From Candidatus Lindowbacteria bacterium RIFCSPLOWO2_12_FULL_62_27 (GTDB taxonomy: Bacteria > Lindowbacteria > 2-12-FULL-62-27), in the NCBI GenBank assembly GCA_001784175.1, contig MFPR01000030.1:62001-126000 (forward strand): a stretch of DNA of 64,000 nt, in the 5' to 3' direction. A program made the position numbers and the translations under genes. Below are positions 1 through 62,692 of this stretch, piece after piece (position 1 is the stretch's first letter; each line of letters starts with the position of its first letter). Under the pieces are notes generated by a model. It searched no databases, was not told the origin of the DNA, and worked only from the letters and a program-made list of their open reading frames with translations.

Positions 1-3000
1 TCGAGGCGGCGCCGCTCAGCGTCACGGTGTCGCCGGCGATGCGGACGGTGTCGGATCCCGCGACGGAGGCGAGGGGCGGCGTGTTGAGGCCGGTGCAGAT
101 GATGTCGTCCGGCGCCGAGGTGTCCTTGCCGTCGAAGACGCGGAGACGAAATACATACACGCCGTAGGAATCGATCAGGACGCTCGGCGTCGCCGTGTTG
201 GCGCCCAGAATCGCCGGGGTTGTCGGCCCGGACACCTGCGACCACGTGTAGGCGAGCGTGTCGCCGTTCAGGTCCGTTGAGGCGAGGCCGCTCAGGGTGA
301 TCGTGTCCGGATGAAGGATCATCGCGTCGGGGCCGGCGTTGGCGGCCGGCGGAACGTTGCCGGCGGTGACGCGGACGGTGTCCGGGGCCGAGGTGTCGAA
401 TCCGTCGTTGACTTCGAGCTGGAAGATGTAAGTGTCCATAAACGCGGTGTCGAGGACGAAGGTCGGACTCGCGACCGTGAAAGACGGCGTCAGGGCCACC
501 GTCGGGGCGCCGTTGGCAGTCTGGGTCCACCGGTAGGTCAGCGGGTCGCCGTTGGTGTCCATCGACGCGCTGCCGTTCAGCGTGTCGACCGATCCGGCCG
601 GGACGACGACGTCGAGGCCGGCGTTGGCGACGGGCGGGGTGTTGGTCGCGGTGATGAGGATCGTGTCGGTCGCCGTGTCCGTGCCGTCGTCGACCACCAC
701 CTGGAACAGGTACTGGGTCACGCTGTCGGCGGACGCGAAGGCCGGGTTGGCGGCCGACGGGCCGGGCACGAGTGACACAAGCGGGCCGGTGATCCGCGTC
801 CAATTGTACGTCAGCGTGTCTTCGGTGTCGGCGTCGGTCGAGGCGGCGGCGTTCAGAAAGACCGTGTCCTTCTTCGTCACGGTCGCCGTTGCCGGGCCGG
901 CGTCGGCGATGGGTTTCGTGTTGACCACCGTGTCCTGGACCGTGTCGGCGTTCGTGTCCGTGCCGTCGTTTACGACCAGTTGAAATACATACGTGCCTTT
1001 CAGCGTCATGTAGACGCTCGCGGTTGCGGCCGTGGGGTTATTGATCGTGACGGCCAGGCCGGAAAGTTGCGTCCACGAGTAGGTCAGGGCGTCGCCGGCA
1101 TCGCTGTCGGTCGAGGCCACGCCGACCAGGAGAATCGTGTCGTTGTTGGGGCGGGTCGTGTCGAGACCGGCGTTGGATACCGGGAGCGTGTTCAGGACCG
1201 TGACCAGCACGGTGTCGTACGAGGTGTCGACCGCGTCGTTCACGCGGAGCTGGAAGACGTAGACGCCCTTGTTGGTCATGAAGACGCTTGCGACCGCAGC
1301 CGACGCGTTGTTGATCGACGCGGCCGGGCCGGAAAGCTTTGACCACAAATAGGCGAGCGTGTCGCCGTTGGCGTCGGACGAGCCGGCGCCGTTCAGGGTC
1401 ACCGTGTCGTTGTTCGGGACGCTCATCGTGTCCGGGCCGGCGTTGGCGACGGGCGCGACGTTGCCGGCCGTGACGCGGACGGTGTCCGGGGCCGAGGTGT
1501 CGAATCCGTCGTTGACTTCGAGCTGGAAGACATAATCTCCGATGAAGGATGTGTCCAGGACGAAGGTCGGAGTCGAAACCGTGAAGGACGGCGTCAGCGT
1601 GACCGTCGGGGCGCCGCTCGAAAGCTGGGTCCACCGGTAGGTCAGCGGGTCGCTGTCGGCGTCGGTCGAGCCGCTGCCGGTCAGGGTGTCGGTCGATCCG
1701 GCCGCCGTGCCGTGATCGATACCGGCGTTGGCGACCGGGACCGCGTTGACGGCCGTGATCTCGACCGTGTCGGCGGCCGTGTCCGTGCCGTCGCTCACGA
1801 CCATCTGGAAGACATACTTGGTGACGCTGTCGGCCGACACGAAGGCCGGGTTGACCACCAGGCTGTTGGGCATCAGGGACACGAACGGGCCGGAAAGCTG
1901 TGTCCACGTGTACGTCAGGCTGTCGCCCGTGTCGGCGTCGGTGGAGGCGGCGCCGGAGAGGTAGACGGTGTCCTTCTTGCTGACCGTCGTGTCCGGGTTG
2001 GTGATCGCGACGGGTTTGGTGTTGAGCGCCGTGATCTGCACGGTGTCGAACGTTGTGTCCACCGCGTCGCTTACGCCGAGCTGGAAGACGTAGACGCCCT
2101 TGTTGGTCATGAAGACGCTCGCGACGGCGCTCGCCGGGTTGTTGATCGACGCGGTGGGGCCGGACAGCTTGGTCCACGAATACGTGAGCGAGTCGCCGTT
2201 GCCGTCGGACGAGCCGGCGCCGTTCAGCGTCGCCGTGTCGTTGTTCGGCACGCTCGTGTCCGGGCCGGCGTTGGCGACCGGCGGGATGTTGCCGGCGGAG
2301 ATGCGGATCGTATCGAAGGACGAGTCGCCGTAAACGTCCGTCACCGTCAGGCGGAACACGTAGGCGCCGGTGTAGGCCGAATCGGACGCGAACGACGGAT
2401 TAGCGGCGGTGGCGCCTGGCGTCAGCGTCATGACCGGGCCCGTCTCCTGGGTCCACTGGTAACTCAGCGAATCCCCGTCCGGATCGCTGGAGGCGGCGCC
2501 TGAGAGCGCCACCGTGCTGCCCGCCACGATGCCCGTGTCGGGACCGGCGTTGGCGATGGGCTTGCGGTTGATCACGCCGACCGGCAAGCCCACCGTGTCG
2601 TCGCCGCGGCCGGCGTAGGGGGCGTTGTTGAAGCCGATGTATCCGCCCGAGTCGCCGCCGGCGCCGCTTCGCGCCGTGGCCCGGATCGTCACGTCGATCG
2701 TGTCGTTCCGGGGCGCGGTGGGTTTCACGAAAATTGCGACTTTGATGTTCCCCGTCGAATCGGGCGGCAGGTTCAGAGACGATATCTGGGTCGCGCCCGA
2801 GGCCTCCCAGAAGCTGATGACCACGCTGTCGGACACGTCAAACCCGTTCGACCGGCGCTTGACGCTTGCCGCGCTGAAGAGCAGTGAGTCGGTGGCGTTG
2901 CCCGCGTTGGTGACCGACACGTCATGCCACGCCGTGTCGGGCGGGGGCATCACAAAGGTGTCGGGCGACAGGCGCGCCAGAGAATCGCCGTAGACGGCCG

Positions 3001-3229
3001 AGATCGTCGCGCTGACCGACAGGGGCGTCGTGGCGAACTTGGTGTCGTTGCCGGCCGGGCTGGTGACGGTGGCGACGATGTCGCCGGTTACATCCGCCAC
3101 GTTGGCCGCCCCGCCGTCTCCTCCAACGGCGATGACCGACCCGGCCAAAGCGCCTGCCGCGCGGACCTCGGAAGGACAGACCAGTCCCAGACTCGCCATA
3201 TATAATATGGAGAGGAGGAGAAGGGACAT
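1..3229 (-). CDS. Large secreted surface protein, partial (runs off the left edge): signal peptide, N-module shared with 3408-4514, then at least nine ~92-aa PKD/KIAA0319-like Ig repeats
   Basis: Absent from the ORF track, apparently because no stop lies in the window. Manual translation from ATG 3229 gives MSLLLLSILYMASLGLVCPSEVRA-AGALAGSVIAVGGDGGAANVADVTGDIV..., then repeats of PxANAGPDT..V.LxGxxSxDxxGDxLTYxWTQxSGP...YVFxLxVxD. The same frame still reads DTVTLSGAAS at positions 2-31. An in-frame GTG/TTG start slightly upstream is possible. Confidence 0.85.
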   Translation of the reverse strand, partial: MSLLLLSILYMASLGLVCPSEVRAAGALAGSVIAVGGDGGAANVADVTGDIVATVTSPAGNDTKFATTPLSVSATISAVYGDSLARLSPDTFVMPPPDTAWHDVSVTNAGNATDSLLFSAASVKRRSNGFDVSDSVVISFWEASGATQISSLNLPPDSTGNIKVAIFVKPTAPRNDTIDVTIRATARSGAGGDSGGYIGFNNAPYAGRGDDTVGLPVGVINRKPIANAGPDTGIVAGSTVALSGAASSDPDGDSLSYQWTQETGPVMTLTPGATAANPSFASDSAYTGAYVFRLTVTDVYGDSSFDTIRISAGNIPPVANAGPDTSVPNNDTATLNGAGSSDGNGDSLTYSWTKLSGPTASINNPASAVASVFMTNKGVYVFQLGVSDAVDTTFDTVQITALNTKPVAITNPDTTVSKKDTVYLSGAASTDADTGDSLTYTWTQLSGPFVSLMPNSLVVNPAFVSADSVTKYVFQMVVSDGTDTAADTVEITAVNAVPVANAGIDHGTAAGSTDTLTGSGSTDADSDPLTYRWTQLSSGAPTVTLTPSFTVSTPTFVLDTSFIGDYVFQLEVNDGFDTSAPDTVRVTAGNVAPVANAGPDTMSVPNNDTVTLNGAGSSDANGDTLAYLWSKLSGPAASINNASAAVASVFMTNKGVYVFQLRVNDAVDTSYDTVLVTVLNTLPVSNAGLDTTRPNNDTILLVGVASTDSDAGDALTYSWTQLSGLAVTINNPTAATASVYMTLKGTYVFQLVVNDGTDTNADTVQDTVVNTKPIADAGPATATVTKKDTVFLNAAASTDADTEDTLTYNWTRITGPLVSLVPGPSAANPAFASADSVTQYLFQVVVDDGTDTATDTILITATNTPPVANAGLDVVVPAGSVDTLNGSASMDTNGDPLTYRWTQTANGAPTVALTPSFTVASPTFVLDTAFMDTYIFQLEVNDGFDTSAPDTVRVTAGNVPPAANAGPDAMILHPDTITLSGLASTDLNGDTLAYTWSQVSGPTTPAILGANTATPSVLIDSYGVYVFRLRVFDGKDTSAPDDIICTGLNTPPLASVAGSDTVRIAGDTVTLSGAAS

Positions 3230-3235
3230 GCCTGG

Positions 3236-3300
3236 GATTTTAGATTTTGGATTTTGGATTTTGGATTTAAACCCAAAACCCGCAACCCGCAATCCGCATC
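3236..3300. repeat. Heptamer short tandem repeats (GATTTTG)n followed by (AACCCGC)-type units
   Basis: Sequence gattttagattttggattttggattttggatttaaacccaaaacccgcaacccgcaatccgc; the same unit recurs at 8858-8899. Confidence 0.8.
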
Positions 3301-3359
3301 CCACGGCGTTCAGTTCAGTCTTCCCGCCGTCAGGTCCGCGCATGCAGACTCCAATCTCT

Positions 3360-3394
3360 GTCGTCGTCATACCCGCGCAAGCGGGAATGACGAC
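3360..3394. repeat. REP-like hairpin (GTCATACCCGCGCAAGCGGGAATGAC), possible mRNA stabiliser or terminator after the major subunit gene
   Basis: Inverted repeat gtcgtcat-a-cccgc-gcaa-gcggg-a-atgacgac; same family as the element at 35120-35252. Confidence 0.7.
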
Positions 3395-3407
3395 CTGGAT
3401 CGCTGAA

Positions 3408-4514
3408 TTACTTAATGTAAACCCTGAATCTCACATACCCCGCGTCGACGTCCGGGGAGACCGCGTCCACCGTGCCGGCATTATCGCCGTTGGTCGGGCC
3501 CACGCCGAGGTTAAACGTCCACTTGATCATCGCCGCGGCCGGATCCGTGTCGCCCACGACAACGCCTGCGGTGTCCGTGATCGTGATTGTCGCCAGCGCG
3601 CCGGTGTGCGGGAACGCCGTCGCCGAATCGCCATTGGCGGCTGTCCCGAGCGTCGTGAACTGCGGGATACGGACCTTGATCGTGAAGCCCACGCCGGTGT
3701 CGTTTCCGTCGTTGTCGTAGCGGATCGTGTACTCGACTTTGGCGCCGGGAACCGTGTCGACCGCCAAGCCGGCATAGCTTGTCGGCGCCGAGATGATGGC
3801 CGACGTGTCGAGCGCCAGGCGGATATTCACATCCTTGACGTTCACGCCGAAGGTGACGTTCGCGTTGCCGTCGCCGGCGTACGAGTCGCCGTTAAAGCCG
3901 CCGTACCCGCCGGAATCGCCGCCCACGCCGTTGTTGGGCAGGGTCTTGATCACGGCGTCCGCCAGGCCCAGCGCGCCGGGCGTGTCGTGCGAGATGGTGA
4001 TCGTCACCTGCGTTTCCGCGCCGGGTGGAATCGATGAGAGGGTGAACGCGGCGTAGCTGTCGTTGCCGTTCTGGTAGATGGTCACCCCGTTGACCTTGAT
4101 GGTCACCGAATCCTTGGCCGCGCCGGTGACGGCGGCGGTGTCGGTCTTGATCTTGATGTTGTCCGTCACGTTGGCGTAGTTCGTGATGGCCAGCGTGAAG
4201 TTCGCAACGCCGCCCGGCGACAGGCCGAGGGTGGCCGCGCCGATGGCGCCGGCGGTGTCACCGAACACCGAGATGATGCTCGCCGAGAGGTTCGCGCCGA
4301 TGTTCGTCTTGAACTGCGTGTCGCTGCCGAGAGAGCTGGTATAGCTGGCGACGATGTCGCCGAAGACGTCGGCCTGGTTGGCCGAGCCTCCGTCACCGCC
4401 GACCGCGACGACCGAGCCGGAAGCCGCGCCGGAGACGTACTTGGCGTCCGCCGGAGCGCTCCAGACCAGTGCCAGGACCGCGATCGCAGCAATTGAAATC
4501 AGTAGTCTGTGCAT
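3408..4514 (-). CDS. Secreted 368-aa protein with N-module and DUF11-like C-module; putative major filament or surface subunit
   Basis: Signal peptide ending ADA; strong RBS GGAGGAGAAGGGAC-ATG; DUF11-like segment VPGAKVEYTIRYDNDGNDTGVGFTIKVRIP; ends DAGYVRFRVYIK. Confidence 0.85.
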   Translation of the reverse strand: MHRLLISIAAIAVLALVWSAPADAKYVSGAASGSVVAVGGDGGSANQADVFGDIVASYTSSLGSDTQFKTNIGANLSASIISVFGDTAGAIGAATLGLSPGGVANFTLAITNYANVTDNIKIKTDTAAVTGAAKDSVTIKVNGVTIYQNGNDSYAAFTLSSIPPGAETQVTITISHDTPGALGLADAVIKTLPNNGVGGDSGGYGGFNGDSYAGDGNANVTFGVNVKDVNIRLALDTSAIISAPTSYAGLAVDTVPGAKVEYTIRYDNDGNDTGVGFTIKVRIPQFTTLGTAANGDSATAFPHTGALATITITDTAGVVVGDTDPAAAMIKWTFNLGVGPTNGDNAGTVDAVSPDVDAGYVRFRVYIK

Positions 4515-4599
4515 GTCCCTTCTCCTCCAAAAAAGTTGTCGCTCAAACGAGTTGAGCCAGGATCTATGTCAAGGATTTCTCCTGAAATCTGTAACTTCG

Positions 4600-6801
4600 T
4601 CACTTGATGTAGACCTTATATTTTACGTACCCGGCGTCGTTATCAGACGTCACCGCGTCGACGACGCCGACGGCGTCACCGTTGTTCGGGGGCACGCCGG
4701 TGGTGAACGTCCATTTGATGCGCACGGCGTTGGGGTCGGTGTCGGCCACGACGTTGCCGGAATCGTCCATGACGGTGACTGCGGCTGTGGCGCCGACGTG
4801 CGGCATGAGGAACGCCGACGCGGCCGGGGAATCGGCGCCGGTGCCGAGCTGGGCGTTCTGCGGGATCTTGGCGGTCAGGACGAAATTGACGGCGGTGTCG
4901 CCGCCGTCGTTGTCGTAACGCAGGGTGATGGTCATCGCGGCGCCGGGGATCGTGTCGTTGGCGGCGCCGCCGTAAGAGGCCGGGGTGACGATCGTGTCCT
5001 GCGCGATCCCAATCAGGACTTTGGGCCGGCCGGAGATGACGCGCAGGACGCCCATCGAATTCATGTCGGTGTCCGGCGCGTCGCCCGTGAGGACATGGGT
5101 CGCGGCGGCTTTGAGTATCCTGGCGTCGATCGTGTCGTCCACCGGGGCCGTGTCGGTCACCTCCACCGTCACCATGAAATTTTTCGTATCGCCCGGTGCG
5201 AGGACCCGCGGCGCGAAAGTGAAATTGACCACGCCGCTCACCAGCGTGCGGCTGTCGCCGAGAATGTCGGCGGGTTCGAGGAGCCCCAGAATGCCCGTGT
5301 CCTCCCAGAGTTTGATGCCGAGCGGAACGAAGACGGTGTCCGGAGAGAGGATAATATTGACCTGAAGGCCGGTGATCGTGTCGGTCTGGCTGGCGTTGTC
5401 TTTCGGCAGGTCGTTCGTCACTGAAAACGCCATGATCACCGCCGTGTCGCCCTGCCGAACCTCGGTATCGGCGTTGCGGGCCTTGCCGTCGAGAACGGCG
5501 TTGACGACCGCGTTCACGATTTGCGAGTCGCCCACGTCGCCCGGGTCGGTGTATCGCATCCGGACGGTGTCGCCGGGCTGGATGTAAAGCTTGCCGCTGT
5601 TGTGCCCGTTGTCGGCGGAATTGCCGCTGAAGCGGAACTCGGTTTCGAAAATGGCGTTGTTGGTATCCTTTTCCGTCAACACGGGCGTTTCCTGCTCGCC
5701 GGAGCCGAGGTTGATCATCGTGATCGTGAACGTCTCCGCCACGGTCGGATTCGTGTTGACGCCGGTGTCGGTCACGCGGATCGTCATCGTCTCGCCGGGC
5801 GCGACGCCTATCACGCTCATCCCGCCGTGGATCGCCTGTAAAAGGCCGGCGGAGTTGGATGCGGGCGGAAGTCTATACCCCCAGAAGTTGGCGGTGTTGC
5901 CCGCAAAGGCATAAAGGGTGTCGCCTGAACCGGGATACACCAGCGCTCCGCCGTAAGACACGCCGGTCGGGGTGGCCGCCTTCGTGTCCCAGGTGTTCGT
6001 GCTGATGTGATAGGCCCAGAAATTGGTGCTGGTACCCCCGCGAAGAGCGTAAATGATGTCGCCCGAACCGGGATAGACCAACCCTCCGCCGTAATTCACG
6101 CCGGCCGGGGTGGATGCCTTCGTTGTCCACGTATCATTGCTGATGGAATATCCCCAGAAGGCGTCGCCCGTACTCCAGTTCCCCTCGAGGGCGTAAAGGG
6201 TGTCGCCCGAACCGGGATACACCAACGATCCGCCGTAATTCGTGTAGTTGGGCGCGGCCGCCTTCGTTTCCCACGTGTTGGTACTGATGGTGTATTTCCA
6301 GAAGGTGGTAGTGGTATTGCCCTGAAAGGCATAGATCGTGTCCGAGCCAGTAGCCACCAACGCTCCGCCGCGCATAACATTGCCTGAGACGGACGTCAGC
6401 GAAGTCCACGCGTTATTGCTGATGGAGTATCCCCAGAAGCCGGTGGTAGCGTTGCCGGCAAGAGCGTAAATGGTGTCGCCCGAGCCGGGATAGACCAACC
6501 CTCCGCCCTCGTCGACGCTGGCCGGGGTGGCCGCCCTCACGAACCATGAGTCGGCGGAAATGGAATACCCCCAGAAGGTGTTGGTGATGCCGCCTTGGAA
6601 GGCATAAATGGTGTCACCCGAAGCGGGACACACGAGCGACGCGCCATTACCCACGGAGGCGGGGGCGGACGCGCGGGTGTCCCAGGTGTCCGCCGCGTTC
6701 GCGTCGGGAGTGAAAAGTGCAAAGTGGAAAGTGAAGAGTGCGAGGATGAGGCAGACTTGGAGACAGGGGGACAAGGAAACAATGTTATTGACTTTTGCCA
6801 T
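4600..6801 (-). CDS. Secreted protein: six-bladed Kelch-like beta-propeller, Ig-like domains, and the C-module shared with 3408-4514; putative tip adhesin
   Basis: Start ATG 6801 after GGAG; signal peptide; six ~46-aa repeats W.TKAATP..V.YGG.LVYPGSGDTIYA..G....FWGYSIS; ends DAGYVKYKVYIK. Confidence 0.85.
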   Translation of the reverse strand: MAKVNNIVSLSPCLQVCLILALFTFHFALFTPDANAADTWDTRASAPASVGNGASLVCPASGDTIYAFQGGITNTFWGYSISADSWFVRAATPASVDEGGGLVYPGSGDTIYALAGNATTGFWGYSISNNAWTSLTSVSGNVMRGGALVATGSDTIYAFQGNTTTTFWKYTISTNTWETKAAAPNYTNYGGSLVYPGSGDTLYALEGNWSTGDAFWGYSISNDTWTTKASTPAGVNYGGGLVYPGSGDIIYALRGGTSTNFWAYHISTNTWDTKAATPTGVSYGGALVYPGSGDTLYAFAGNTANFWGYRLPPASNSAGLLQAIHGGMSVIGVAPGETMTIRVTDTGVNTNPTVAETFTITMINLGSGEQETPVLTEKDTNNAIFETEFRFSGNSADNGHNSGKLYIQPGDTVRMRYTDPGDVGDSQIVNAVVNAVLDGKARNADTEVRQGDTAVIMAFSVTNDLPKDNASQTDTITGLQVNIILSPDTVFVPLGIKLWEDTGILGLLEPADILGDSRTLVSGVVNFTFAPRVLAPGDTKNFMVTVEVTDTAPVDDTIDARILKAAATHVLTGDAPDTDMNSMGVLRVISGRPKVLIGIAQDTIVTPASYGGAANDTIPGAAMTITLRYDNDGGDTAVNFVLTAKIPQNAQLGTGADSPAASAFLMPHVGATAAVTVMDDSGNVVADTDPNAVRIKWTFTTGVPPNNGDAVGVVDAVTSDNDAGYVKYKVYIK

Positions 6802-6882
6802 CACTCCACCACCAGCCACGGAGGCAGACGGATCGGTGTGCGCGGGGCGGACCCATCCAATACTTAATTGGAAAGATATGTT

Positions 6883-6898
6883 TGTGATCTGGATCACA
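6883..6898. promoter_or_regulatory. CRP/FNR-family-type operator, TGTGA-N6-TCACA
   Basis: TGTGATCTGGATCACA, one mismatch to the CRP core consensus TGTGATCTAGATCACA, in the leader of the surface-protein operon. Confidence 0.7.
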
Positions 6899-7070
6899 TT
6901 GGCGAGGCAGGTTCGCACGAAAGGCCCTCCGACTTTTTGGTATTTGATCAGTCGGCCGGGCCTGTTTGGCACTTGACCGGGGTGGCTCCCTGCAGAAATA
7001 GCCTATTCATAAGTCCTATATCCATCCATATAATAGTCGGCAGGACCGACCCCTCAGTTAATACCTGCAA

Positions 7071-7099
7071 AGATTAACCGGCGGGTGGGGAAAAGTCAA
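7071..7099 (-). promoter_or_regulatory. Sigma70-type promoter for the surface-protein operon
   Basis: Minus strand reads TTGACT-17 nt-TAATCT. Confidence 0.6.
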
Positions 7100-7109
7100 G
7101 GAAAAAGAT

Positions 7110-7125
7110 TGTGATCTGGGTCACA
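7110..7125. promoter_or_regulatory. Second CRP/FNR-family-type operator
   Basis: TGTGATCTGGGTCACA (ATT/AAT flanks), just upstream of the -35 box and overlapping the pgl stop codon. Confidence 0.65.
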
Positions 7126-7858
7126 ATCCCGGAATTGCGGCGTCGACCAGCCACGTCAGGCGGCCATTCGTGGGGCGGACGCCTTGGGACGGGTAGAGGT
7201 CGGCGTTCGGGGCGCCGTGGAGGACCTCGCGGAGGGCGGCGGCCTTGTCGGCGCCGGCGACCATGAAGAGGACGTGGGCGGCGGCGTTCAGGACCGGGTA
7301 GGTCAGGGTCACGCGGTCGGCGGGGGTCGGGGTGCCGGCGAATTTATCGACGTGGGTGGAGACCACCCACCGCTTCGTCTCATTCAGGGCGGCCGTGCCC
7401 GGAAAAAGCGATGCGGTGTGACCGTCGGGGCCCATGCCCAAGAGGATGAGGTCAAACCGCGGGAATGGGCGGTCATCGGTTTCGCCGAAGATGCGGAGGA
7501 GCGTACCCTCGTACTCGGCGGCGGCGATGTTGGGCGGGGCCTCGCCGCGGATGCGGTGGATCTGGCGTTTGGGGATGGAGACGTTCATGAGGAGGCTGGC
7601 GTTGGCCATGCGGTAGTTGCTGTAATCGCTTTCGGGGGTGACACAGCGTTCATCGCCGAAGAAGATGTGGACCTTTTGCCAATCGATCCTGTCCCGGTAC
7701 ATGTCCGCCGCCAGGAGTTCATACATGCCCCTGGGGGTCGAACCGCCGGCGAGTGCGACGGTAAACCGATCGCCGGCGCGGCCGACGGCCTCAGAGAAGA
7801 GAGCGGCGGCTTTCTGGAAGATTTCTCCGGGCGACGGGCAGACGATCAGGTCGGGCAA
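7121..7858 (-). CDS. pgl: 6-phosphogluconolactonase
   Basis: Motifs ALAGGSTP, FFGDERCV, LLGMGPDGHTASLFP, RVTLT; pentose phosphate operon context. Confidence 0.95.
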   Translation of the reverse strand: MPDLIVCPSPGEIFQKAAALFSEAVGRAGDRFTVALAGGSTPRGMYELLAADMYRDRIDWQKVHIFFGDERCVTPESDYSNYRMANASLLMNVSIPKRQIHRIRGEAPPNIAAAEYEGTLLRIFGETDDRPFPRFDLILLGMGPDGHTASLFPGTAALNETKRWVVSTHVDKFAGTPTPADRVTLTYPVLNAAAHVLFMVAGADKAAALREVLHGAPNADLYPSQGVRPTNGRLTWLVDAAIPGL

Positions 7859-8851: not shown

Positions 8852-8857
8852 GGTTTT

Positions 8858-8899
8858 AAATCCAAAATCCAAAATCCAAAATCCAAAATCCAAAATCTC
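8858..8899. repeat. Heptamer tandem repeat (AAATCCA)x5 plus a degenerate unit, between zwf and glk
   Basis: aaatccaaaatccaaaatccaaaatccaaaatccaaaatctc. Confidence 0.85.
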
Positions 8900-8902
8900 A
8901 AT

Positions 8903-61054: not shown

Positions 61055-62692
61055 TCAGTAATTGAAATTATAATTTGCGGCCTTGTTGCCCGAGTGGCCT
61101 GACGCGCAACTGAGGTCATAGGCGGTCGGGTTGTTATTGGTCCAGCAATCGATTCCGCCCGATCCATCGTCGTAATCGAAGCCGGTCATCGCCGCGCCGT
61201 TCATAAAATGCAGGCCCAGGTAATCTTGACCGCTGCCGACGCCCGCGTTGGAGCCGTGGATGCCGCCGTTGGCGCCGCCGCCGTGACAGTTCAAGCACCA
61301 GATCGTGAAGGCGTTGTCGGTGTTGACGTCATGATTGGTATTGATCGGATGCGTCACCCGGCTTCTTGTCCGATTCGCGCCGCTGGCGTGATAGACGTCA
61401 TATCTATGGCACTTGAAGCAGAGCACATGCTCCTCGTTGGTGGCCCCGGCGCCGGCCGGGTTGTAAGTTCGAAGCAGATAGTCAATCGTGTAGTAGTTCC
61501 CCCCTGTCGGCTCGCCGTGGACGTAGTGGCAGTCGCTGCAGGTCACGTAGCTGGTTTCGGACCAGCCGTCCGTGAAAACGGTGTCGCCGATGTTGCCGCT
61601 TTGAAGTTTCCCCTTTTTGACGATGGGATGAATGGCCAGGTTGTTGGGATTGATCTCCCTCGATATGTCCGTGATGATATTCGGCGCCGCGCCGGACGGA
61701 ATTCCGGCGGAAAAGGACGAATGGCAGCGCAGGCACAACTCATACTCGTAATTCGTCCGCGCCGTCGAAAACTGAACCTTCGTCCAGTTGGTCGGCGCCG
61801 CCGGAAGGCCGGCGCCGCCGCCTCCCGAGTCGGGCCAGGCGTTGACCTGCACGCCGTACGTTCCTAGGAGCACGTTGCCGGCTTTCGTGTCGCCCACTGT
61901 GTGCGTGCCCCCCTGCGCATAATGCGGATTATGGCAGTCCTCACATTCCACGTGCGGATTGCTCGACCAGTTCAGCGTGTCTCCGGCCAAGCCGTGGTAA
62001 AACGGCGTGCGGTCGTTCGCCGCCGCGTCCTCATTGACGGGATGGTTGTAGAAGTTCGTCCCGTCGTTCAGAGACCTGAACTCGTCCTTGATGTCCGTCG
62101 CCGCCGGCGCGCCGTCGTGGCATTCATAGCAGAGATACTCCTCCTGGCGGATCGTGAGGTCGCTCGTGGGCTGGGTATTGGAGGTGTAAGGCCCCCCCGT
62201 GAGATTGTCGGCGTCGACGATTCTCACGCCGTGCGGATCATGGCAATTGACGCATTCGCCGGTGTTGTTGCCCGAGGCCGGATAGACGACGTTGGCGCTC
62301 GTCCAGTGCGAGGACAGTTCGAACTTGGCCTGGCCCGGCCAGCCCGGAAGATTGGCGTTGGTGTCGGTGTGGCAGACGAAACAGGTCGAATTGACCCACG
62401 GAGACGCGGCGGAGGGGGCCGGCAGCATTTTCGGATAGCCGGCGCCGGCGTTGGGCGTGTCGGTCGAATCCAACGACGCATGCTGAATGTGGCAGTTGCC
62501 GCAAAGTCCCGTGTCCCTGACGTCCGACGCGTAGCCTCCGATCCATCGAATCTGCGCGCCGGTGTCGGGATCGCCATGCGCGACGTTTTTGATGATGTTC
62601 GCCGCCCAAATATCCCGTACGGTCAGAAAGCAAACCGCCAAAGAGATCAAGGCCGCCGCCGGGAGGGCGAATTTTTCCCACGACGAATTCAT
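61055..62692 (-). CDS. Secreted multiheme cytochrome c (nine CxxCH, paired-CXXCH type)
   Basis: CGNCH, CFVCH, CVNCH, CYECH, CEDCH, CLRCH, CSDCH, CFKCH, CLNCH; signal peptide. Confidence 0.95.
   Translation of the reverse strand: MNSSWEKFALPAAALISLAVCFLTVRDIWAANIIKNVAHGDPDTGAQIRWIGGYASDVRDTGLCGNCHIQHASLDSTDTPNAGAGYPKMLPAPSAASPWVNSTCFVCHTDTNANLPGWPGQAKFELSSHWTSANVVYPASGNNTGECVNCHDPHGVRIVDADNLTGGPYTSNTQPTSDLTIRQEEYLCYECHDGAPAATDIKDEFRSLNDGTNFYNHPVNEDAAANDRTPFYHGLAGDTLNWSSNPHVECEDCHNPHYAQGGTHTVGDTKAGNVLLGTYGVQVNAWPDSGGGGAGLPAAPTNWTKVQFSTARTNYEYELCLRCHSSFSAGIPSGAAPNIITDISREINPNNLAIHPIVKKGKLQSGNIGDTVFTDGWSETSYVTCSDCHYVHGEPTGGNYYTIDYLLRTYNPAGAGATNEEHVLCFKCHRYDVYHASGANRTRSRVTHPINTNHDVNTDNAFTIWCLNCHGGGANGGIHGSNAGVGSGQDYLGLHFMNGAAMTGFDYDDGSGGIDCWTNNNPTAYDLSCASGHSGNKAANYNFNY

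Follow-up and report, generated by a model that had tools for sequence, protein, structure and literature searches.

The start of one cistron can be governed by a distant part of the same RNA, as in the Min Jou interaction of the RNA phage MS2, in which translation of the upstream coat gene opens the initiation site of the downstream replicase gene. To our knowledge, natural cases in which long-range pairing shuts a bacterial ribosome-binding site (RBS) are very few. Here, a candidate of this kind is described in a 64,000-nt stretch of DNA (the window; positions 62,001 to 126,000 of contig MFPR01000030.1) from Candidatus Lindowbacteria bacterium RIFCSPLOWO2_12_FULL_62_27, in which a perfect 18-bp inverted repeat links the Shine–Dalgarno (SD) sequence and AUG of one gene (gene 1) to codons in the 5′ part of the next (gene 2). 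The MS2-type geometry is present, in that a start site faces the coding region of another cistron, namely codons 38–44 of gene 2, and its function is predicted. As in MS2 and Qβ, the start of one cistron would be controlled by a distant part of a polycistronic RNA, with ribosome traffic acting ~1.3 kb away. Unlike in MS2, the masked site lies in the upstream gene and its partner in the downstream one, which makes the coupling reverse, and the RNA belongs to a cellular operon rather than a phage. For the polycistronic RNA of Qβ, a long-distance interaction is on record (PMC2978339).

Sequences resembling the anti-SD tail of 16S rRNA provide the other close parallels. In Bacillus subtilis, anti-SD-like 8–12-mers located hundreds of nucleotides beyond the RBS pair with it, with a shorter mRNA half-life and less translation as the outcome (Gill et al., bioRxiv 2025, PMC12697547). 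In that work, a 12-mer more than 500 nt downstream still reduces protein by 44%, the tracts act from within the coding sequence independently of reading frame, coding sequences contain fewer of them than expected, and hairpins on their flanks can weaken the effect (PMC12697547). The locus studied here resembles these systems, since a downstream pyrimidine-rich tract complementary to the SD region of the same mRNA would cut RBS accessibility. However, the published tracts are engineered 8–12-mers acting over up to ~500–830 nt in B. subtilis reporters, with depletion as the natural signal (PMC12697547), whereas here a natural 17–18-mer covers SD, spacer, and AUG from 1.28 kb away, belongs to the following cistron, and has been conserved, not purged. 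In the icaR mRNA of Staphylococcus aureus, translation is controlled by an anti-SD motif close to the transcript's 3′ end, which pairs with the SD of that mRNA; the partner there lies in the 3′ untranslated region (UTR) of a monocistronic mRNA (PMC3868564), in contrast to the translated 5′ part of the next gene here, where ribosomes on gene 2 should open it. If real, the helix described here would be a natural and conserved one of the anti-RBS kind that spans a cistron and has its second strand in the translated start of the next gene.

An 18-bp inverted repeat on the start site of gene 1

The window comes from a 4.39-Mb metagenome-assembled genome (MAG; 61% GC, 94% complete), referred to as G000, and was compared with G002, a relative that carries the same operon. 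The repeat consists of GGAGGAGAAGGGACATGC at 3214–3231 of the plus strand and its exact reverse complement at 4511–4528, with 1279 nt between the arms, and both its coordinates and its exactness are as an earlier reading made from the sequence only had described them. It does not extend at either end, the bases that face each other beyond it being U.U and A.G. All genes of the locus lie on the minus strand, with gaps of 64–71 nt between co-directional genes, and the features on which the argument turns are as follows.

3408..4514, minus strand: gene 1 (P0001), encoding a 368-aa secreted protein with a signal peptide and a central Ig-like β-sandwich.
4511..4528, minus strand: 5′ arm, the gene-1 initiation region, with SD GGAGGAG (4528..4522), spacer AAGGGAC, AUG (4514..4512), and the first base, C, of codon 2.
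3214..3231, minus strand: 3′ arm, GCAUGUCCCUUCUCCUCC, an anti-SD-like pyrimidine tract forming gene 2 codons 38–44 (G-M-S-L-L-L-L).
1..3343, minus strand: gene 2, 1752 aa from AUG 3343, running off the window and ending at G000:C30:60085.
3341..3352, minus strand: probable gene-2 initiation region, with SD GGAG (3352..3349), a 5-nt spacer, and AUG (3343..3341).
3174..3228, minus strand: best-conserved block, 55 nt with 92.7% nucleotide identity to G002, encoding SLLLLSILYMASLGLV.
3196..3210, minus strand: AU-rich hairpin CCAUAU-UAU-AUAUGG, 3 nt past the 3′ arm, reading CCAUAU-UAU-GUGUGG in G002.

The 5′ arm thus covers the SD, spacer, and AUG of gene 1, and the sequence-only reading, which had placed it on the SD and AUG of a "major subunit" gene, was correct in this respect. 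The 16S rRNA of the organism ends in a canonical CCUCC tail, and hence the gene-1 SD is functional in type and the 3′ arm mimics the ribosome's own anti-SD.

None of 100 dinucleotide shuffles of the window gave such a match, even with up to two mismatches allowed, and the whole genome holds only these two copies plus one match elsewhere with two mismatches. Perfect inverted repeats of at least 18 bp within 3 kb are not rare as a class (63 in G000), but almost every one is a member of a dispersed family of AT-rich tandem 7–8-mers, which the 3214/4511 pair is not. When the longest perfect complement on the same strand was sought in the 3 kb downstream of each of 3404 crude SD-plus-start sites of the genome, the gene-1 site was the sole case outside the repeat families with a perfect complement of at least 15 nt. 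The 18-nt class holds this pair twice, as gene 1 and as its mirror, a shadow open reading frame (ORF) on the plus strand, and the 21-nt and 15-nt cases are dispersed repeats; a control with reversed, uncomplemented sequence gave 17 nt once and 14 nt three times. Pairing of this type as a genome-wide habit was rejected, no other initiation site of the 3404 showing such a complement.

The position of the 3′ arm relative to gene 2 is different from that first proposed, which had the second arm spanning the AUG and first codons (MSLLL) of that gene. An in-frame AUG does exist at 3229, followed by MSLLL, but it has no SD, and its position is taken by GUG in G002 and by Ala in a third lineage (P0023 ...HGQASLLLLSILYMASLGLV). 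Because a conserved SD and AUG lie 114 nt upstream of it, at 3343, the 3′ arm, which lies 112 nt inside gene 2, is probably internal to the gene and not its initiation site. Judged from the sequences compared, AUG 3343 rather than 3229 is probably the true gene-2 start. The homologous start in G002 reads GGAAGGAG N6 ATG at L017:6433, the encoded proteins begin with MRGPDGGK in G000 versus MSGRIGRK in G002, and P0023 has an MSG start 38 residues ahead of SLLLL. The resulting N-terminal extension of 37–39 residues is kept in length, not in sequence, and the 3′ arm itself encodes residues at which a long signal peptide enters its hydrophobic core.

As a side observation, both genomes place the probable gene-2 AUG in a small hairpin loop (window 3336–3351; L017 ~6425–6441); the hairpin reads GUCUGC-AUGC-GCGGAC in G000 and UCCGC-AUGA-GCGGA in G002 with a U-G to C-G difference. 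Local pairing of the 3′ arm with the gene-2 SD was also considered and found poor by eye in both genomes.

Conservation and predicted folding of the two arms

This locus comes from a candidate phylum that the reference set represents by just four genomes, and searches among relatives and across the whole phylum found the operon in one of the three others, G002 (L017, L019, and L020 are its assemblies or contigs). Besides the contig of the window itself, a metagenome scan yielded two contigs (L019, L020), both at 100% identity to G002. A 20-mer scan of genome contigs returned G002 and three unrelated matches, and protein searches reached 8–10 further lineages, with gene-1 homologues P0005–P0012 (46–81% identical) and gene-2 homologues P0014 and P0023.

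Both arms are kept in G002, where they read GGAGGAGAAGGGACAUGA and AAGUGUCCCUUCUCCUCC and form a helix of 17 bp, made of 15 Watson–Crick pairs, one U-G pair in place of U-A in G000, and a new A-U pair at the far end; the helix length is thereby held at 17–18 bp, with pairing lost at one end but gained at the opposite one. Around the 5′ arm, the 17 nt from the gene-1 SD to the AUG are identical in the two genomes, the gene 1 proteins being 52% identical. The 14 nt ahead of this AUG match at 14/14 positions, whereas five other syntenic start sites are just partly alike.

The 3′ arm, whose core kept in G002 spans 3214–3228, opens the 55-nt block that ranks best among nine high-scoring segment pairs in a 7-kb comparison, the other eight having 72–87% identity. 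Within this block, codons TCC CTT CTC CTC CTC TCC ATA TTA are identical in both genomes, including the rare TTA and ATA (1.2% of all Leu and 11% of all Ile codons, respectively), and the probability of an all-pyrimidine SLLLLS is 0.012. The peptide SLLLLSIL is invariant in all four lineages seen as protein, in contrast to the gene-1 signal peptide, which varies freely over the same lineages. All three A-to-G differences at predicted paired positions, one in the helix and two in the adjacent AU-rich hairpin, preserve pairing as G-U, and such pairs exist only in minus-strand RNA. Since a G-U pair counts only there, the A-to-G change inside the helix supports the RNA of the minus strand as the molecule that pairs. 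In the comparison with an orthologous operon that the sequence-only reading had proposed, both arms are kept in the one lineage available, with no compensatory double change between them.

Thermodynamically, the long-range helix dominates the predicted folds. It is present in the minimum free energy and centroid structures of the 1.39-kb RNA in both genomes, with pair probabilities of 0.85–1.0 in G000 and 0.57–1.0 in G002. The duplex energies are −36.8 and −32.7 kcal/mol, respectively, forbidding the helix costs 26 kcal/mol in G000 and 20 kcal/mol in G002, and for neither genome did any of 60 shuffled initiation regions attain the duplex energy of the real one. In G003, a genome with a distant gene-1 homologue, a bulged 10-bp candidate had been spotted by eye and proved unremarkable in the duplex shuffle test.

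A putative anti-RBS duplex and competing explanations

The reading that we favor, with moderate confidence and on sequence grounds, is that the two arms form a long-range anti-RBS duplex in the operon mRNA, limiting or coupling gene-1 translation. In transcripts that read through gene 1 into gene 2, the 3′ arm would fold back 1.28 kb onto the gene-1 SD, spacer, and AUG to give a 17–18-bp helix enclosing the whole gene-1 cistron. While this helix stands, 30S subunits would be barred from the gene-1 site, with a fall in gene-1 translation and probably faster mRNA decay; ribosomes coming from gene 2's own exposed site would melt the helix at codons 38–44 and briefly free the gene-1 site. Output of the shaft-like protein would in this way be tied to transcript length and to translation of the giant anchored protein. 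The data show the match itself, its exact placement on the gene-1 SD-AUG, its retention in one relative, and its dominance in the predicted folds, and from these we infer that the helix forms in cells and how, and how strongly, it acts; on the pairing model, the As in GGAGGAGAAGGGA would be protected by the distal arm. One of the two options offered by the sequence-only reading was such an mRNA duplex hiding both initiation sites, and it is favored by the co-directional genes, the kept pairing, the G-U pair possible only in RNA, and the folds. Its scope has to be narrowed, because the other arm sits ~38 codons into gene 2, and the duplex would hide only the initiation site of gene 1.

Several points weigh against this reading. 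Co-transcription of gene 1 and gene 2 is presumed, and only one independent lineage was compared at the DNA level; between G000 and G002 the helix shows no compensatory double change, and the keeping of both arms would also be expected if each were under a separate constraint. The 3′ arm is just the first 15 nt of the longer conserved block of 55 nt. The folds are predicted at equilibrium and take neither ribosomes nor kinetics into account, the 3′ arm is flanked by two predicted hairpins, and the pairing would span 1.28 kb of translated RNA, a longer range than that of the strongest published distal anti-SD effects (PMC12697547). Across a scan of very many windows, moreover, a few chance 18-mers of this kind are expected. 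Lastly, the distant gene-1 homologues in G003 and G059 have no significant downstream anti-RBS tract (p ~0.77, 0.27, and 0.23), and thus the device, if real, is limited to a narrow clade.

A more specific version, "reverse translational coupling", would have the shaft RBS shut by a helix with the signal-peptide codons of the giant anchor gene, whose product is tailed for the type 9 secretion system (T9SS), and opened by translation of the anchor; it is speculative, and we consider it distinctly unlikely. If it were true, shaft subunits would be made in proportion to anchors from one mRNA without a protein regulator, and the start-to-arm spacing of 37–39 codons, found in three lineages with unrelated intervening sequence, would belong to the device. 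If the duplex as such is true, the locus offers a ready test case for cross-regulation of neighboring cistrons by mRNA folding, and it tells those who annotate genomes that signal-peptide codons of unusual conservation may be elements of RNA structure. A recent preprint argues that distal anti-SD tracts are in general purged from genes (PMC12697547).

The complementarity may also be without function, the purine-rich start region and the pyrimidine-rich signal-peptide tract (Ser and Leu codons TCC, CTC, and CTT) being constrained separately and the helix being absent or inconsequential. This explanation is rather unlikely in our estimate, though it ranks next after the duplex. It fits the missing compensatory substitution, the longer conserved block, and the general conservation of start sites in the operon, and it gains from an unrelated lipoprotein-like gene on a Hydrogenedentota MAG contig (L024, 2498–2518) that opens with the same 21 nt, ATGTCCCTTCTCCTCCTCTCC (MSLLLLSACG), from which it follows that the tract arises readily from MSLLLLS in GC-rich genomes. 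Under independent, identically distributed bases, ~0.3 chance 18-mers within 3 kb are expected per genome, and some would therefore turn up in a very large scan. However, the match sits exactly on the SD and AUG, for which the expectation falls to ~0.004 per genome, and it is the only non-repeat case among the 3404 sites. Conservation extends to synonymous sites and to the rare codons ATA and TTA, the genome has only 88 runs of at least 18 nt made up of purines or of pyrimidines alone, the helix length is held by loss and gain at its ends, and published data indicate selection against distal anti-SD tracts (PMC12697547). Should it be a coincidence after all, the locus would illustrate how closely a purine-rich RBS together with Leu/Ser codons may imitate a switch.

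Inverted repeats around a 1.3-kb segment also recall a DNA switch. Invertons and invertible promoters, such as fimS, Hin, and the Bacteroides capsule promoters, likewise have short perfect inverted repeats flanking a segment beside surface-structure genes, and the sequence-only reading had proposed that flipping of 3232–4510 by a site-specific recombinase would turn gene 1 off while leaving the "stalk" ORF intact. The repeat core is kept in the relative, as recombinase sites would be, and the genome encodes 14 tyrosine recombinases and one serine recombinase. The nearest recombinase gene (PF00589), however, is at C30:18421, 47 kb away, in agreement with the earlier remark that the window contains none, and the sole PF00239 match is on another contig. 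Both orientations, which the same reading had suggested looking for, were sought in Logan contigs of four DNA runs over 2300–5500: contigs in the reference orientation cross the left arm in two runs and the right arm in three, and a strand-changing joint occurs in none of the four, although a rare minor orientation could escape contigs. All other assemblies share this orientation (L018, another assembly of G000, and L017, L019, and L020 of G002). In G002 the DNA repeat is just 15 bp, and the neighboring change is tolerable only as an RNA G-U pair. The ORF that a flip would place behind the SD-ATG is not conserved, G002 having no ATG and a different ORF, and gene 2, far from being left intact, would be detached from its conserved start at 3343. 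Unlike in invertons, then, there is neither a second orientation in assemblies or contigs nor an adjacent recombinase, and the repeats are an SD-AUG and a coding tract of one transcript. Because contigs could miss a rare orientation, inversion is retained, as a very improbable explanation.

Two further proposals concern the same sequences. In rRNA operons, processing stalks formed by sequences that flank 16S and 23S rRNA are cut by RNase III, and the present helix, which likewise pairs sequences on either side of a whole functional RNA unit over a long range, could be a cleavage site that separates or inactivates the gene-1 and gene-2 messages, with little of its effect due to ribosome blocking. 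The perfect 17–18-bp duplex surrounding the cistron and the presence of an RNase III gene in the genome are consistent with this, and RNase III is named alongside the icaR 5′–3′ UTR pairing (PMC3868564). We nevertheless hold it to be improbable: the helix falls below the roughly two helical turns usual for RNase III substrates, a cut inside the SD-AUG would destroy the start of gene 1 itself, and the rRNA stalks are longer and enclose a stable RNA, whereas one strand here is an mRNA RBS. Alternatively, the plus strand could carry an AT-rich box followed by GGAGAGGAGGAGAAGGGACA, serving as promoter and leader of an antisense RNA or a small ORF opposite the 5′ region of gene 2. In its favor, TATAAT occurs at 3201–3206 of the plus strand, although the coding region around it is GC-rich; G002 retains most of it, as CATAAT, and in G000 it is followed by a strong SD and ATG. 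Yet a consensus scan calls no promoter at this box, a −35-like hexamer is missing, the ATG is absent from G002, the ORFs differ (270 aa versus ~20 aa), and two of the A-to-G changes would break the plus-strand version of the hairpin, all of which leaves this explanation hardly credible.

Gene order, encoded proteins, and dispersed repeats

The remaining features of the locus are the following.

4600..6972, minus strand: gene 0, an open frame with a signal peptide or transmembrane (TM) segment and Kelch-like repeats (weak Pfam matches).
3363..3394, minus strand: stem-loop directly after the gene-1 stop, with 14-nt arms, one mismatch, a 4-nt loop, and no U tract.
3232..3305, minus strand: palindromic heptamer-repeat insert, (AAAATCC)n on the mRNA after degenerate GGRTTNN units, absent from G002.

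Upstream of the locus are glk, zwf, and tal-pgi, and downstream of gene 2 are an alginate-export-like barrel gene (Alginate_exp) and a FecR-domain gene; the stop codon of gene 0 lies 71 nt ahead of the gene-1 SD. From gene 0 to gene 2, a promoter and terminator consensus scan, which assumes signals of the E. coli type, found nothing relevant, and Rfam gave just one sub-threshold match over 2900–7300, judged to be chance. The stem-loop after gene 1 is strong and appears in the predicted folds; it has no counterpart seen in G002 and was not called a terminator by the consensus scan. Partial termination is one conceivable role, and a further inserted element is another possible origin.

The three proteins are built from shared modules. 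Gene 1 has a C-terminal module (~135 aa) in common with gene 0, the two C-termini being 57% identical, and an N-terminal module in common with gene 2 (34% identity). Gene 2 continues after this module with at least nine PKD-type repeats and a T9SS-type C-terminal sorting domain, the latter at the Pfam cut-off. This sharing among genes 0, 1, and 2 (window 1–6972, G000:C30:54702-62000) suggests end-to-end assembly. A Pfam search of gene 1 assigned no family, and its AlphaFold model, built from 10 sequences, is of low confidence (mean pLDDT 58.5), with a central β-sandwich and residues 1–84 unstructured; Foldseek with this model returned only generic Ig-like matches (TM ≤0.33). The names "major subunit" and "stalk" used in the sequence-only reading were accordingly guesses, gene 1 having no Pfam family and a generic Ig-like fold of low confidence. 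A DUF11 identity at the locus was also considered and dropped, the match being weak and below the cut-off (E 0.026).

The heptamer insert abuts the 3′ arm (within 4 nt), makes up most of the G000 gene-2 N-terminal extension, and is read in frame as KSKIQNPKSKIP. A heptamer array is likewise read in frame as part of the leader, MKKTEILDFRFWILDL, of the alginate-export-like gene (gene Y, L025; G000:C30:59043), and the G002 orthologues of both genes lack such arrays. At the corresponding position of gene 2, the third lineage (P0023) carries RFEVRGPRFEVR, suggestive of another kind of 7-nt array. Phase variation of these leaders is conceivable, since a change of one unit would shift the frame. Contigs of all four runs break in the heptamer tract 3235–3274, the only place over 2300–5500 where they do so, and the summed depth there exceeds 1000.

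Genome-wide, (GGATTTT)n arrays, mostly of 3–5 units, gave 42 regex matches, located at or just inside the 5′ ends of genes; those in the window are at 3235–3274 and 8852–8900, and one array lies 6 nt ahead of the likely GTG start of glucokinase. The lipoprotein-like gene of the Hydrogenedentota contig is preceded by an array of a CATCCCT heptamer. Other dispersed families of AT-rich tandem 7–8-mers, including ATAGACTT, AGAAGAC, TTGACTTT, AAGTTATT, and more, occur beside GC-rich boxes. Such families are often arranged as inverted pairs with a spacing of ~1 kb, and most of the long inverted repeats of the genome belong to them, as at C6:117432-120189, C4:215045-219396, C11:14981-16020, and C24:13738-14686.

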